Positions 2,797-53,017 of a stretch of 64,000 bases of DNA are shown here, one piece after another. The DNA lies in NCBI RefSeq assembly GCF_006345805.1, contig NC_043000.1:107570001-107634000 (forward strand). The letters run 5' to 3'. The position numbers and the translations under genes are program-made. The stretch comes from Octopus sinensis (Eukaryota). Below the pieces are notes generated by a model. The model made no database searches and was not told the origin of the DNA. It saw nothing but the letters and a program-made list of their open reading frames with translations. Numbering within the stretch: the first letter of the stretch is position 1; each line of letters begins with the position of its first letter.

Positions 2797-2882
2797 ACTT
2801 TCCTGAGGAGAAGATTGCATTGTTTATACCATTTATTCTTTTGAATAGTATCAGTGGAATTTTCGAAACATGTGTTGAAAGT
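2797..2882 (+). ncRNA. Minimal type-I hammerhead ribozyme in the Penelope 3' region
   Basis: Stem I actttc/gaaagt (6 bp); CTGAGGA 2803-2809; stem II gaagattgcattg/cagtggaattttc; GAAAC 2865-2869; loop ATGT; GTT triplet 2874-2876. Confidence 0.8.
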
Positions 2883-5374
2883 AAAAATATTTGTTTACAC
2901 CTGCGTTAACTCCATTTTTTATTCATATATATATACATATATATATATATATAATATATATATATATATATATATTATATATATATATATATATATGAAG
3001 CTATAGTGGTCTATGGAAATTATATACGTTTTTATTATTTTTTTGCAATTTACTTAATCTTTGGTATTTTATTGTTATTTTAATTTTAATATTTCTATTA
3101 CATATAATTTTCTAGATGGTGTAATTTAATTGTTCATTTTGAATTGATAAAAGGTGTTTTTTTTTCTAATTTATATATATATATATATATTATATTGTGT
3201 GAAATTTGACTTAGTATTTCTAAATTGAATTTTTTCCCTGTATGTTAGGATTAATATTCCCTTAAATAATAATTATATATATATACGCATACAGGGTGGA
3301 GGTACACGAGCACATACACACACACATACACATTCACATATACATAAACATATGTATGTACAAACACGTAGCTTATTGTGAATTAGAGAAAATACTGAAT
3401 ACATAATGTAGAGTATAATTATATTTATTCCGCTGATACTATTTGCAGTAACTTCAAGTTTCCCGATTATTCGATCAATCATACGTAAAGGAACACATGC
3501 CTTGAGTACTGAAGTATTAATTGTTGGTTAACAGTAACAACCACCACCACAACAACGACTGCTATTTCTGAAGCTATAAGGGCCTATAGAAATTGTGTTG
3601 CCTGTCTTCAATCTTGTTATCTATGAGTTAGCTGAATGTAGAATCTTGAATTCTAGGTGAATATTGAAAAATTCAGACTTCCTCCATAATTTAGATCTTT
3701 CGTTTAGCAAAAGAAAAAAAGTGAACAGCAATAATAAAGCCTACCTTGACATCAGAAATATGGGATCTGTATTATCGATTAACAGGAAATCTTCTCCACA
3801 ACTCTAGTCTATTTAATCAAAAGCCAATATGCTTGTGAGAAAAACTAATAAACTATTTAGTCACACGGGAAATAAAATGAATGATTAAATGTGTTTTCTG
3901 ATTAGCTGTTGCTAATCAGCAGTTCGTATAAATTGGAGAGTAGCATAATTGATCTCAACGTTGAGGGAATGAGGTTATGTTGTGTTGATGTCTTCCTCAA
4001 GGTTATTAATGATACCTGGGAATGAAGGCATTTTCAGTTTTTCGACAGCATCTCCATCGCTCTTCGAAATTTCCTAGAACGAGGCAAATGTTTATCATAC
4101 AAAACATTATTAATAAATTATAAACTACTATTATCTAGACACAGTAGTGATGTGTTATTTTGCCTTTCAGAAGCAAATCAATTAGGTATCAACTGGCAGA
4201 TGTCTCTGCGTTTGTTATCTTTTATTTTGATAATAACACAATACTGTTCTCAAGAGAATGTTTCAAACAGAAGTTGGGTAATTGTAATACCTCCCAGCAT
4301 CAATTCTATGCAAACTTTGAGTTCTTGGTAAAAGATATGCATTTTTCTAATGATGCAATAGAATCAATGTCGAACGTGAAAACAGGAGAAACTATATCAC
4401 ACTTTTTATTATCAGCTATCGAAACACAATGCCTTATTGTTTTTCTTATATATTTAACAAATTAAGCTTTAAAATTATATAATAATTCAGATAAGTCACA
4501 TTTGATGTTGTAATTGTATTAACCGATTTTTTTATACTGTTTTGTAATATTCCATTAGGTCACGCCTCAATTTGAATTCAAATCCCTCAGAAGTCAAATT
4601 TGCCTCTCACCTTTACCAGGGGTCGGTGACATGTAAATCTGCAAAGCAGAGAGGAGATGAGTGAAGGATGGAATCATTATCCATAGAAACCTTGAATCTG
4701 TGTTAGAAATTATTATTATTTTGTTTGAGTAGAATTGGCAGTGGTTCTTAGTTGTGCTTAATGTATTTTTTAAGTTTATTTCCATTTAATTTTATCAATT
4801 TTAGCAACATACTCCAAATAAACGTTAAAATATTATGGTTTCTATTGATTTTCATCTTTAATTGGTCTTTCATTGTCGGTATCTTGAGACAATATACGTT
4901 GTAGCGAAACCTATCTATAATAAAGCAAAAAATAGAGAAACATAACAACAAGAATACGCTGTCAGATATAGATTGGAAGTATCGATTGAATTAAAACGTA
5001 TTGTAGGAAATAAACCACTAGAAAATTACAAAGAACATTCGTAGTTTGCGCTATTTATGGACGACAATAAGATAGATTTTGTGCCAATATACAACATCTT
5101 ATTCTGATTACGTATCTTGAAAATTAATCGATAAACTATAAGAGTCAGTGTCTTCACTTTGCAAAATTAGCAATCATCTTAGTATATATTTCTCCTGTTT
5201 ACCACTTTTAATTTGTTCAAATGCATTGCTATAGAAATGTAAGCTAGGTACGTATACATAAGGCGGTGGTTATCTTTTTGCATGAAGCGAAAAGCAACGA
5301 GCTTTTTATACAATATCCTTCTTTTTAACAAAGTTTGAGAAGAACTGACATTATTAAACCTCACTGGACCTTAT

Positions 5375-5800
5375 CCAATATGAAATAGTTAAAATGAATG
5401 ACAACTGAGTTATCAACAAAGAGTTTAAAGAGGTGGAGGATAATTTAAAACACGGATATCCGGGGGTGGGGGGTGGATTTAAACTGGATCTTCAGAAGAT
5501 AAAACTAAGATTTTAAACAATTTAATGAAGAAAATAATTTACGTTGGAAGTTTATCCAAATGAGATGTAGATCATTGTCATTGATATTCTTCAAATTCCA
5601 AGCTTGATGTTACTACTGAGTACCAAGATGTCAGTAGTTCATCGGGTGATTTGGCGAAGATGTTAATTGTTGGAAGTCATGAGTGTGTATAGACATTAAC
5701 AAATTGTTTCAGTTGAATAATTTCTATTACTTTGGTAGTGATTGATAAACTGAAATTAAAGAAGATAGGTGGGTATCAAGACCGAAGAATGTTTGGTGGT
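5375..5800 (-). pseudogene. Highly decayed LINE reverse transcriptase fragment
   Basis: Minus strand reads SLSITTKVIEII (like ISLLS..KVFE) and LFKLFVDNS (like LFADD), with many stops and frameshifts. Confidence 0.35.
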
Positions 5801-6082
5801 CACCGGTGATGACAGAGAAAAGCGTGCGGGAAATAAACCGATATAACTGATTGGTGAAGCCAGTTGGTTACTTCTAATATTGTCCAAATACAATAAGAGA
5901 CTTTGGACAATTGGCGCGTCATGTGTTCTTAATATTCTTAATATTTCGTGACTTGGTTTGACCGCAGTATGATAAAGCCAGATCTCACTTGGACGTCATG
6001 AAAAAAGCATACACACATGCATGCATATGTATCTATGTATACATGTGTGTGTATGAGTGCATCTATGAATGTATCTGTGCGC

Positions 6083-6270
6083 GTGTGTGTGTGTGTGTGT
6101 GTCTGTATATATCTATCTATCTATCTATCTATCTATCTATCTATCTATCTATCTATCTATCTATCTATCTATCTATATATATATATATATATATATATAT
6201 ATATATATATATATATACACACACACACATATATATATATATTATATATATATATATGTGTGTGTGTGTA
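6083..6270. repeat. Compound microsatellite (GT)n(ATCT)n(AT)n(AC)n
   Basis: Directly visible; explains the overlapping low-complexity ORFs. Confidence 0.95.
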
Positions 6271-50985: not shown

Positions 50986-51318
50986 TATATATATATATAT
51001 ATATATATATATATATATATATATATATATATATATATATATAAGATTTAGTTGAATTAGGTACTTAAACTGTGGCACCTTGTTTGGATTGAATAATATA
51101 CACAGACAATGATGTTATGTAAATATCAAACTGTACATGTGTACCGGCCGAATGATATTCTTGCAGTGTATGCAGATATTTCAGCTGAGTGAAGAAATTC
51201 GCTCTTGAGCTATTCAAACATGTATATTATGTTAAATATACAGTCCATAATATTTACGAAAAGCAGATTCCGAGATAAAATGTACTATGAGTATTATGAG
51301 TAAAATGTGAATAAAATG

Positions 51319-51636
51319 TAAATCAGTAACAGTAGAGGTACAGGTGTTAATCCATTACGGTTATTGCCAACAAGTCCTTTATTTGATTAATGAAAACGTT
51401 ACGCCATTATAAAGAAAACCGTCTTTTCAGAAGAATTCATGATCTTCAAAATTTGGGATATTCAGAATGATTCAAAATAGTTTAAAATCGACGGAGCAAA
51501 ACATCTTTATTTTGAAGTTCATGAATTCATCTGACGTAAACGGTTTCTTTATAATGATGTAATGTTTTCATTAATCAATTGAAGGAGTCGTTAGAAACGG
51601 CCGTAATGGATTGACACCTCTACTGTTGCTCATTTA
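51319..51636. mobile_element. MITE-like fold-back with ~130 bp arms
   Basis: aacagtagagg...ttaatccattacgg...attaatgaaaac...gaattcatgatcttcaaaat is mirrored at 51508-51636. Confidence 0.8.
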
Positions 51637-52770
51637 TATATATATATATATATATATGTGTGTGTGTGTGTGTGTGCGTGTTCGTGCGTATATATATATA
51701 TATATATATATATAAGAGGGATAACCACTAAGTTGGCATCCATTATGATAGAAGTAGACCCCCTATGGTCTTACCACTAAGAAAGGATGTCACGATAAAC
51801 ACCACAGATCTTGCTGAATATGATTGCCCATGTCTTCCTTGTCAAAATAATTTATCTTTCCATTTTCAAACTGGGAACAAGACCATTTGTCTGTTGTCTT
51901 TTTTAGCAGATGACGTTTAATCAAGAATCGTTGGTTAGGAAGAAGATAAGAAGAAAAACGTAAGGGAGATAATCAACGTTGCAATAATTCGATGTGAGAT
52001 TTAATATGCTCAAAAGGAAACCGATATTTAGAATTCCAACTGAATTCGTGTTTATTCAAAGGAAAAGTGTGAGTACGTGTCGTATTTGGGTAGGTCACTG
52101 AACACACATAAGAAACTAAGCAAATGACCCACACACATACACACACGTATCTCGAACCGTTTTCTCTTTTGGTCGCTAAGCGGGTTTGAAATCATATGAT
52201 ATCTTTAAGGCTGGATTTTTTGTAAAAAATTGTTTATCAACTAATGCAGAGCCAAAGGCAGCAGGAAATCTGCATCATCGCAGAATGACCTATTTGTGTC
52301 TAGTTCTCACAGGCAGGGCATTTATCTGTCAAATTTATCTGTCAAATCATCATGTTTACCGTCTCCAAAAGAATAGAGATGGTTAGAGCAAATCATCGAT
52401 GTGTTCTTTTATTGAATTATTGGTTCTAATCATTGGACCAAGGCCATACTGGAGCATCACTATCGATTCCTTTTCCTTGGGTCATTATAGAGAAAAGTAT
52501 ATGTTTTTAATATGGTAATATTTTTATCAATATATATATATATTATATATATATATATATATATATATATATATATATATATATATATATATATATATAT
52601 TATATATATATATATATATTGTGAAATAGAAAGATGAATAATCTTGTTGCAGATTAATCAAAAGTTTAACCGATACCTTGGTAGCAAAAATCACAGCGGA
52701 AGACACCACGGTTGGAGGTACAACCATATGGTGTTGCAACCATGCGTTGGTGCGGATAATTGAATTTTAA

Positions 52771-53017
52771 TATTATTAGTGAATTGAAGAAATGGAGTTG
52801 AGCAAAACAAATCGTTCGATTTGTTTTGCTCCGCCTCTGTTCTGTTTTTGTTTTTTCCAACGGATTTCCTATTTCTTCCTGAAGAGAAAGACACAATATG
52901 GTCTCCTTATTCAATCGGAATTTGGTAAATTGTGGCTTTCGAAACACGTGTAGAATGCAATAAAACGATTTCTGTTCAATCATCGCTCAACTCCATTTCT
53001 TCAATTCACTAATAATA
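52771..53017 (+). mobile_element. Short hammerhead-bearing element with a perfect 33-bp inverted copy of its 3' end
   Basis: tattattagtgaattgaagaaatggagttgagc (52771-52803) is the reverse complement of 52985-53017; runs into (TA)n. Confidence 0.75.
52876..52955 (+). ncRNA. Minimal type-I hammerhead ribozyme with intact core
   Basis: ttc CTGAAGA (52879-52885) gaaagacacaat...attgtggctttc GAAAC ACGT GTA gaa; 11 of 12 pairs in stem II; palindromic ACACGTGT. Confidence 0.8.

Follow-up and report, generated by a model that had tools for sequence, protein, structure and literature searches.

The hammerhead motifs found in a 64-kb stretch of Octopus sinensis DNA (the whole of the sequence analysed, referred to here as the window) are read, with moderate confidence, as the 3′ ends of insertions written by the enzymes of Penelope-like elements (PLEs). 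On this reading, the motif at 2803 follows an ORF of the Hydra type, those at 50714, 52879, and 51531 belong to truncated copies, and the pair at 29379 and 29762 forms part of a tRNA-derived SINE with a PLE tail. It is this tRNA-headed element that matters in the window; hammerhead motifs with such palindromes and inverted copies have already been published for PLEs, which makes the initial finding an ordinary one. No report of a PLE-mobilised SINE was found in the literature searched (Repbase, Dfam, and the subscription journals lie outside that search), and a dispersed SINE moved by PLEs would, if true, represent a new host-parasite pairing.

Hammerhead motifs in the window

Hammerhead cores are found at 2803 (+; H1), 29379 (−; H2), 29762 (+; H3), 50714 (+; H4), and 52879 (+; H5), together with a sixth, decayed motif at 51531 (H6; motif span 51531–51605). 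The cores lie where the initial annotation had placed them, with the minus-strand core now located at 29379, and the five motifs are confirmed as genuine features of the sequence, their self-cleavage being predicted. As a count of motifs, the five loci originally listed stand, while as a count of insertions they are reduced to four, given that H2 and H3 share a single insertion; the degenerate H6 has to be added to the list.

With a strict type I descriptor, two loci were recovered; 100 block-wise dinucleotide shuffles gave 0.04 on average. The relaxed, palindrome-aware descriptor, which was drawn up after the strict version had missed 29379, recovered four loci at a score of ≥8 (shuffle mean 0.08, maximum 2) and three at ≥9 (mean 0.01, maximum 1). 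The CUGANGA and GAAA cores, the NUH site, and stems I and II are all present at 2803, 29379, and 52879, and H2, with its zero-loop stem III (ACGT), is the best preserved of the motifs, scoring 10/10 on the relaxed descriptor. Mutations are found in the cores of 50714 (G5 to A) and 51531, and in the stems of 29762, which fails both descriptors, with stem II and the first pair of stem I broken, and was identified as a hammerhead through its alignment to 29379. The palindrome of stem III is perfect in five of the six motifs, including ACGT at both 29379 and 29762, ACGATCGT at 50714, and ACACGTGT at 52879, and has a single mismatch in H1 (ACATGTGT), which supports the earlier description of minimal, PLE-type hammerheads of type I with a palindromic stem III. 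The fold is kept across families despite their differing sequences, and among the 40 variants listed, of 61, in the family to which H2 and H3 belong, only unlinked changes are seen, none of them compensatory.

Rfam returned no hammerhead match in the whole window at E ≤ 1, or in 29200–29900 at E ≤ 10, and the minimum free energy (MFE) folds do not contain the active monomer fold, MFE being uninformative here. The microRNA matches of Rfam in the window are microsatellites or plain inverted repeats. A further 15 cores, among them the CTGATGA at 1508, were dropped, as they lack stems. The pattern scans gave 0 and 0 matches in metagenomes and 0 in viral contigs, while three matches in prokaryote genomes are attributed to chance, their flanks being unrelated.

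The motifs resemble the minimal hammerheads of metazoan PLEs (Cervera & de la Pena 2014, PMC4209133) in their type I fold, in the vestigial, palindromic stem III, in the extra base between positions 9 and 10.1 (here in H2 and H3), and in their occurrence mostly as single motifs. Some opposite-strand pairs, 100–700 bp apart, are also found in that survey, where they were attributed to truncated PLEs. In contrast with the published motifs, H1, H5, and H6 have a stem II region of 55–56 nt, and the main text of the survey includes neither an octopus or other mollusc nor a tRNA head.

The head-to-head insertion at 29238–29865

The motifs at 29379 and 29762 lie on opposite arms of one insertion, flanked by a 12-bp target duplication, in which each arm (362 and 244 nt in length) is composed of a tRNA-like head, a (TAA)n stretch, and a hammerhead tail:

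29238–29249 (+): left copy of the 12-bp target-site duplication, abutting the arm end
29250–29435 (−): tail of the minus arm, the longer of the two, with its hammerhead and a 3′ extension of ~30 nt (29250–29282)
29340–29383 (−): minimal hammerhead H2, core 29379–29373, with an extra A at 9.1 and a 5-bp stem II; predicted cut after 29344
29436–29542 (−): microsatellite of (TAA)n type separating head from tail, minus arm
29543–29611 (−): tRNA-like head, minus arm (pairwise score matched by 1 of 300 shuffles)
29608–29661 (+): 5′-truncated tRNA-like head, plus arm, with a B box at 29638
29663–29707 (+): (TAA)15 between head and tail, plus arm
29708–29853 (+): tail of the plus arm with the decayed H3, core 29762–29768; predicted cut after 29797
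29854–29865 (+): right copy of the 12-bp target-site duplication, abutting the arm end

The two arms meet head-to-head at a 4-nt GCGC overlap (29608–29611), and their tails are identical at 131 of 147 aligned positions, with that of the plus arm stopping at a short 3′ end, without the extension of ~30 nt. Sequence is retained on both sides of the predicted cut site. Any shared 12-mer was found in 40 of 3000 random pairs of 70 × 70 nt.

The plus-arm head matched a profile of 37 bacterial tRNAs as the fourth-best hit in the whole window (nhmmer E = 0.0075; 0 of 300 shuffles). The minus-arm head, which nhmmer did not report on its own, reaches approximately position 7 of the 76-position profile when its register is taken from the plus arm; its A box is imperfect, with no match to the A-box consensus anywhere in the 29238–29865 copy, and its B box is one or two changes off. 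The head was not called by the Rfam tRNA model or by ARAGORN at default settings, and the relaxed ARAGORN settings produced noise. The sense strand contains no TTTT, which fits transcription by RNA polymerase III (Pol III) weakly, given that 47% of shuffles also lack it.

In public sequencing contigs, the depth on the tail, summed over overlapping contigs and skipping the microsatellite part at 29431–29465, reaches 12,700–257,500 times that of the flank, depending on position and run, a ratio that is not a copy number, and 25,331–32,589 tail-bearing contigs were recovered per DNA-like run. The very high hammerhead numbers predicted for the genome hold for at least one family. The loose 3′ ends of this family cluster at 59–62 and 87–92 nt past the predicted cut, with one cluster at ~29252, and two clusters ~30 nt apart are the signature known as the PLE “tail”; the pairing of one arm with the extension and one without it, as published for PLEs, points to the same identification. 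The CpG decay of the family is 9–10% in an RNA-like run and 14–31% elsewhere, although these values are contig-based, with the run type guessed, and are not used here as evidence.

Like the tRNA-derived SINEs (SINEBase, PMC3531059), the insertion has a head-body-tail build, a length of <700 bp (362 nt and non-coding), a target duplication, and a high copy number, as reflected in the tail depth, with the B box lying in a tRNA-related head. By definition, SINEs depend on a LINE partner, whereas here the 3′ end and the insertion pattern are of the PLE type, with a PLE-type hammerhead and a PLE tail signature standing in place of the 3′ end of a partner LINE. The family works like a SINE, but is no textbook member of the class.

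Octopus tRNA-derived SINE families named OK, OR1, and OR2 were reportedly described by Ohshima & Okada in 1994; the family found here may coincide with one of them or with an entry in Repbase or Dfam. The insertion is likely a tRNA-derived SINE mobilised by a PLE, a partner that the protein searches did not recover.

Probable Penelope-like ends at (TA)n targets

The remaining motifs all lie in elements that end at (TA)n (four of four), a type of flank that makes up 2.6% of the window, and all have an 8-nt stem III:

1884–2592 (+): broken C-terminal PLE ORF of the Hydra type, covering the thumb/linker and the GIY-YIG region (tblastn, 150 relatives)
2797–2882 (+): type I hammerhead H1, core 2803–2809, 55-nt stem II region, stem III ACATGTGT; predicted cut after 2876
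50538–50670 (−): the 3′ end of the H4 element repeated in inverted orientation, beside (AT)30 (127 of 133 positions identical)
50681–50896 (+): H4 element, mutated core 50714–50720, stem III ACGATCGT; predicted cut after 50771
51316–51634 (no single strand): older inverted pair ending in (TA)n, with the degenerate H6 on the plus strand (core 51531–51537, stem III ACGGCCGT, cut site 51605) and a second, more decayed copy of the motif on the minus arm
52770–52803 (−): the final 34 nt of the H5 element repeated in inverted orientation (34 of 34 identical)
52816–53018 (+): H5 element, ending in (AT)13, core 52879–52885, 55-nt stem II region, stem III ACACGTGT; predicted cut after 52952

The ORF remnant, which is interrupted by a single frameshift near 2313 and by a stop codon in frame near 2542, lies ~210 nt upstream of H1, in an element that ends at ~2925 in (TA)n, and H1 is the 3′ end of this coding PLE remnant. 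Its closest relative is an Octopus sinensis protein (77% identity over 70 aa), and it has a C-terminal GIY-YIG endonuclease (EN) with the ending CxxC-E...N...CxH, as defined for Hydra. The N-terminal part of the reverse transcriptase (RWK, DKT site) is cut off, while DK[TS] is present in four of nine long relatives; Pfam recognised neither the remnant nor six relatives. An assignment to Neptune was dropped, as the CxxC/CxH ending and the (TA)n target point to a Hydra-like element.

Elements of the Hydra clade, which occur in Octopus, target (TA)n and have hammerheads ~100–200 nt from the 3′ end. The window elements share with this clade, including Hydra-1_Obim (Craig et al. 2021, PMC8557442), the C-terminal EN with CxxC and CxH, the (TA)n target, and a hammerhead near the 3′ end with a 4-bp stem III, and one Hydra family also has an inverted 5′ copy. 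The differences are that the zinc finger CxCX5C of the Hydra linker could be seen neither in the remnant nor in P0003, a close relative of it, so the element at 1884–2925 is Hydra-like rather than a typical member, and that the Octopus family listed in that study has another hammerhead sequence, with a short loop II. None of four strings of 11–15 nt from the window occurs in the available part of its supplement.

The 3′ ends downstream of H5 and H1 are related (shuffle p = 0.0005; window background p = 0.0015), while their stem II interiors and upstream parts cannot be aligned (p ~0.5), and the ends of H4 and H2 cannot be aligned to those of the other loci. The H4 element begins with ten codons that weakly resemble the end of a PLE ORF, and short fold-back junctions follow the inverted copies of H4 (~50667–50690) and H5 (32 nt, 52800–52831). 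The upstream inverted copies reported by the initial annotation are real at these two loci, with six mismatches over 133 nt at H4, and conform to the published pattern of PLE insertion, whereas the one reported at 29 kb is the longer arm of the insertion described above, with its own head and tail. The (TA)n surroundings prevent a target duplication from being called at H1, H4, or H5. The loci at 50714, 52879, and 51531 are probably 5′-truncated ends of the Hydra type, and truncated PLEs account for them more simply than retrozyme-like families do, with the autonomous parents not recovered; no PLE ORF was found beside H4, H5, or H6 (tblastn, 150 relatives), so non-autonomous families may be represented there, and a metagenome pattern scan for longer copies of their types was empty.

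Competing accounts and the proposed mobilisation

The strongest competitor, although unlikely, is that all of the loci, including 29238–29865, are truncated autonomous PLEs, with the head picked up in a single event, the insertion of a PLE end into the (TAA)n end of an ordinary SINE, after which the read-through RNA was copied. The linkage of head and tail is seen in both arms of one insertion only, PLEs prefer AT-rich and microsatellite targets, and in Octopus vulgaris 190 PLE families make up 6.83% of the genome and SINEs 11.6%, an abundance from which chance composites of the two are to be expected. The tail depth is, however, not lower upstream of the ribozyme (78,000–97,000×) than over its core (58,000–73,000×), the head is not found in the window without the tail, and the long arm appears to stop ~6 nt from the expected tRNA start, as a transcript initiated at the head would. 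No protein matched the tail frame. The protein searches were weak and, as a point against the SINE reading, found no frame spanning head and tail and no partner ORF starting in the tail.

The initial annotation proposed that several retrozyme-like, non-coding families, with dimeric hammerheads that give rise to circles, parasitise the PLEs and that the loci are their monomers, which now appears improbable. The absence of an adjoining ORF at H4, H5, and H6 would suit this proposal, as would the abundance of the tail family in a run guessed to be RNA, and the published retrozyme families show a relationship to the terminal repeats of PLEs and leave scattered monomers behind. The animal non-LTR retrozymes (PMC7229834; bioRxiv 10.64898/2026.07.22.740005) are, like the window elements, non-coding, with type I hammerheads and the presumed use of PLE proteins, but in the available parts of these sources their defining features are units in direct tandem and a circular RNA, and they have canonical motifs and no tRNA head. 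No hammerheads in direct tandem are found at any locus of the 64-kb window, which leaves all of them outside this definition, and in place of the canonical hammerhead, whose loops 1 and 2 are short, the motifs are either minimal, as in PLEs, or have a long stem II. Several such families are also made less likely by the attachment of H1 to a coding PLE and the relationship of the H5 end to that of H1, while the tail family, the one candidate that does look non-autonomous, is built like a tRNA-headed SINE. Its copies neither begin nor end at the cut site, and the best 15 of 59 joints include none that indicates a circle, although contigs are weak for circles. The Sm-alpha and Sj-alpha elements of Schistosoma are similar in the order of Pol III promoter and hammerhead, their lack of coding sequence, and their high copy number; they are described in the available part of the source (PMC6765202) as often tandem, with canonical hammerheads released from multimers, whereas here the motif is minimal, and the copies are dispersed and bear the marks of PLE insertion.

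A LINE-mobilised SINE whose body is a captured fragment of a PLE, with a later inversion or LINE twin priming, is very improbable: tRNA-headed SINEs are abundant in octopus and 12-bp target duplications are usual for LINE-driven SINEs, but both arms hold the 3′ end, where twin priming gives only one, 3′ ends that fall into two clusters 30 nt apart are described as peculiar to PLEs, and neither arm has a poly(A) or simple-repeat 3′ tail.

If the insertion is a PLE-mobilised SINE, RNA polymerase III would copy the head, (TAA)n, and tail from the internal promoter, and a PLE protein acting in trans may bind the hammerhead-bearing tail. The PLE endonuclease would then make staggered cuts, offset by 12 nt, in the two strands of an AT-rich target, leaving the observed duplication, and reverse transcription may be primed from both DNA ends, starting at the far site on one and ~30 nt nearer the ribozyme on the other. 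The joining of the two copies at the 4-nt overlap would produce the head-to-head pair, and the copies would decay after insertion. The sequence kept on either side of the cut site suggests that the copied RNA was uncut or re-joined; according to the literature, cutting would need a second RNA or the protein, and the inverted pairs could not provide a dimer partner in cis, given that the second motif lies on the opposite strand.

It is somewhat more probable than otherwise that octopus genomes contain tens of thousands of these Pol III-driven, tRNA-headed SINEs, with a PLE partner in place of a LINE, the minimal hammerhead of the PLE as the recognition end, PLE tails, and head-to-head inversions. 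If so, the octopus would be among the most hammerhead-rich animals, and the rule on SINE partners would be widened to a third class of retrotransposon. In a family of such size, counting could address the origin of the PLE tails and of the inverted 5′ copies, and show whether cutting is the reason for the retention of the hammerhead or whether it serves only as the end to which the protein binds.

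Hammerhead motifs and their state

The window is animal DNA rich in AT and microsatellites, and all five hammerhead motifs claimed in the initial annotation are located at their places within it, together with a sixth, degenerate one:

2803, plus strand: motif H1
29379, minus strand: motif H2, in the minus (long) arm of the insertion 29238-29865
29762, plus strand: motif H3, in the plus arm of the same insertion
50714, plus strand: motif H4
51531, plus strand: motif H6, degenerate
52879, plus strand: motif H5

A strict type I descriptor, set against 100 block-wise dinucleotide shuffles, recovers 2803 and 52879, against a mean of 0.04 loci in a shuffle. 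A second descriptor, drawn up after the strict one had missed 29379, makes the near-palindrome obligatory and tolerates a single mismatch in the core, an additional base following A9, and stems that pair imperfectly. This recovers eight loci, with scores of 10 (29379), 9 (52879 and 2803), 8 (51531), 7 (50714), and 6 (three further loci, taken as background), and a score of at least 8 is reached by four loci, versus 0.08 per shuffle. The motif at 29762 is found by neither scan, because its stem II and first stem I pair are broken, and is recognised by its alignment to 29379. The Rfam search returned no hammerhead match. A hammerhead-like site at 1478-1590, in which CTGATGA precedes GAAAC, the stems are poor, and another GAAAC lies just 5', fails both scans.

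The core is altered at 50714 (G5 to A) and at 51531 (A9 to T), changes that are predicted to inactivate both ribozymes. Three differing perfect 8-nt palindromes occupy the same location in H4, H5, and H6, which would argue for selection on the hammerhead fold in their source elements.

The motif observation is mostly known biology of the Penelope-like elements (PLEs). Retrozymes are defined by units in direct tandem (bioRxiv 10.64898/2026.07.22.740005) and bear canonical motifs, while minimal motifs accompany PLEs (PMC7229834); the window has neither the direct tandem nor the canonical motif, and the several retrozyme-like families that had been proposed are not upheld. In the giant squid, 235 Rfam hammerhead matches are reported (PMC6962438).

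Probable truncated ends of the Hydra type

A broken ORF at 1884-2592 (plus strand), which ends approximately 210 nt 5' of H1, matches PLE proteins across the thumb, linker, and GIY-YIG region, with 244 representatives at E<=0.001, and also in tblastn with the best 150 of these. The name of its nearest relative points to Octopus sinensis (77% identity over 70 aa), which makes an octopus the very probable host. Its C-terminus carries CxxC-E...N...CxH, a signature of the PLE clade Hydra (PMC8557442), and the linker zinc finger of this clade is not visible in the remnant. According to the supplement tables of PMC8557442, Hydra elements target (TA)n, bear, close to the 3' end, hammerheads whose stem III is 4 bp long, and have Octopus bimaculoides among their hosts. 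A (TA)n run terminates H1, H4, H5, and H6 alike, such flanks making up 2.6% of the window.

The sequence that follows the cut site of H5 is related to that of H1 (p=0.0005 against shuffles and p=0.0015 against the window background), although their stem II interiors and upstream parts cannot be aligned. The stem II of H6 is equal in length to those of 2803 and 52879. Ten codons 5' of H4 bear a weak likeness to Hydra ORF ends, and tblastn with the best 150 of the 244 PLE relatives found no PLE ORF adjoining H4, H5, or H6. Inverted 5' copies are present at the H4, H5, and H6 loci (127/133, 34/34, and 94/113 identical positions), and H4 and H5 also have a short fold-back at the junction. H4, H5, and H6 are most simply read as members of several Hydra-type families that have lost their 5' part, an inverted 5' copy accompanying each. 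This is the published PLE pattern, in which elements are highly 5'-truncated and bear an inverted copy at that end (PMC8557442), and minimal motifs, whether single or on opposite strands, are interpreted as truncated PLEs (PMC4209133).

The fold-backs at 50667-50690 and 52800-52831 are short and perfect, lie between the inverted and the direct copy, and belong to unrelated families; they may be traces of a template switch made as the PLE inserted. The stretch 51316-51639 is an older inverted pair; the degenerate H6 (51531-51605) lies on one arm, and its counterpart on the opposite arm has decayed further.

The two-armed insertion with a tRNA-like head

The insertion at 29238-29865 is likely to be a SINE with a tRNA-like head that is mobilised by a PLE and present in very many copies, the linkage of head and tail being seen in this one insertion. 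A 12-bp direct repeat (29238-29249 and 29854-29865) adjoins both outer ends of the arm pair; in a control, any 12-mer is common to 40 of 3000 random 70x70-nt pairs. The arms are joined head to head with a 4-nt overlap, and each runs from a tRNA-like head through (TAA)n to the hammerhead-bearing tail, differing at 7/51 positions in the head and 16/147 in the tail.

In an nhmmer search of the whole window with a profile built from 37 bacterial tRNAs, the plus-arm head reaches E=0.0075, ranking fourth behind three other tRNA-like heads, and the pairwise tRNA scores of the plus- and minus-arm heads are equalled in 0/300 and 1/300 shuffles, respectively. One of the two GTTCGANNCC boxes in the window lies in the plus arm. 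Evidence against a tRNA-like head is that Rfam and default ARAGORN do not call it, that the minus-arm head does not appear among the nhmmer matches in its own right, and that a consensus A box is absent. The long arm extends to about position 7 of 76 in the tRNA register, and may thus end near the expected start of a Pol III transcript. TTTT is absent from the sense strand of both arms and present in the four Hydra-type ends, although 47% of shuffles also lack it. The other three heads, at 44748-44815 (minus), 12816-12878 (plus), and 37941-38006 (plus), with E values of 1.6e-10 to 3e-4, likely belong to ordinary octopus SINEs.

A transcript reading through both arms is predicted to fold as a single extended hairpin, at -328 kcal/mol over 604 nt, and the inverted partner cannot act as a dimer mate in cis, because it is antisense. 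One frame is open throughout the tail in both arms, at 29728-29853 (plus) and 29228-29428 (minus), despite 11% divergence. It could be the start of the ORF of the partner PLE; neither arm gives a protein match for this frame, and protein searches found no frame spanning head and tail, nor a partner ORF from the tail. The partner is probably not Hydra, because the insertion lies outside (TA)n and its zero-loop motif has an extra base at 9.1.

In schistosome SINE-like elements, too, a hammerhead follows a Pol III promoter, but the units are often in tandem (PMC6765202). SINEs are by definition clients of LINEs (PMC3531059), and one guide allows that retrozymes, under a loose definition, may count as PLE-dependent SINEs (PMC8969392). 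No tRNA-headed, PLE-mobilised element is described in the available portions of PMC8967140, PMC4758252, PMC9223172, PMC4824008, and PMC13282606, nor was one found by the literature search; Repbase, Dfam, or the Zenodo library may list the family under a different name.

Abundance and proposed mobilisation of the tail family

Copies of the tail are widespread in public sequencing contigs, and of the 24 runs listed, 19, under six organism codes, contain at least half of the sampled words. Four of those 19 were aligned, as contigs only, to 28600-29465, leaving out 29431-29465. The three DNA-like runs among these have 25,331-32,589 contigs on the stretch and a depth of 30-49 in the flank, and their summed tail depth is 12,700-257,500 times that of the flank, depending on position (58,000-73,000 in the core bin), a measure that is inflated by overlapping contigs and is no copy number. 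We read the abundance as being of the order of 10^4-10^5 by summed depth, which is not a true copy number. In O. vulgaris, a supplement row gives 190 PLE families as 6.83% of the genome.

The central CG of the palindrome (29346-29347) is altered in 14-31% of the depth in the DNA-like runs, and many copies are therefore decaying. A contig of organism B, with a flank diverged by 5%, crosses the insertion junction, so the insertion is older than that split. A further run, RNA-like by a guess at its type, contains the tail and lacks the flank. Its central CG is altered in approximately 10% of the depth, versus 14-31%, which may indicate a bias towards younger copies in RNA.

Among the 24 of 820 rows listed, the loose ends form two clusters, one at 29252-29257 (87-92 nt beyond the predicted cut) and one at 29282-29286 (59-62 nt beyond it); of the two arms, the minus one extends to the far site (94 nt) and the plus one to the near site (56 nt). 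This resembles the signature of PLE insertions, a tail of 30-40 bp that may be present at one end. In vitro, that tail was attributed to reverse transcription starting at two internal sites, of which the main one is 85-92 nt beyond the ribozyme cut by subtraction (PMC11167929). The same source reports that both DNA strands are cut, that targets are AT-rich, that the protein assists cleavage, that RNA is inserted uncut, and that the cut site shows no RNA ends. The element would be transcribed by Pol III and its RNA bound in trans by a PLE protein; a DNA cut staggered by 12 nt would let both ends prime, one at each start site, and the two copies would join at the overlap.

Other repeats also occur in the window. 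A near-exact direct duplication (484-696 and 710-918, 226-nt spacing) has each unit closed by (TACA)n, and two abundant interspersed families, with many copies each, are frequently nested:

12138-13912, 24597-25476, 30818-31195, 40397-41134, 57337-57743: the first family
17372-17980, 33504-33838, 36660-37076, 58388-58812: the second family

Assorted coding remnants at 60425-60871 (minus), 43053-44026 (plus), 62487-62867 (plus), 34624-35358 (minus), 16291-16674 (plus), and 21457-21573 (minus) jointly include a reverse transcriptase remnant (Pfam RVT_1) and further probable pieces of LINEs, a remnant resembling a DUF4371 transposase, a stretch of C2H2 zinc fingers, and a second, weak match to PLEs.
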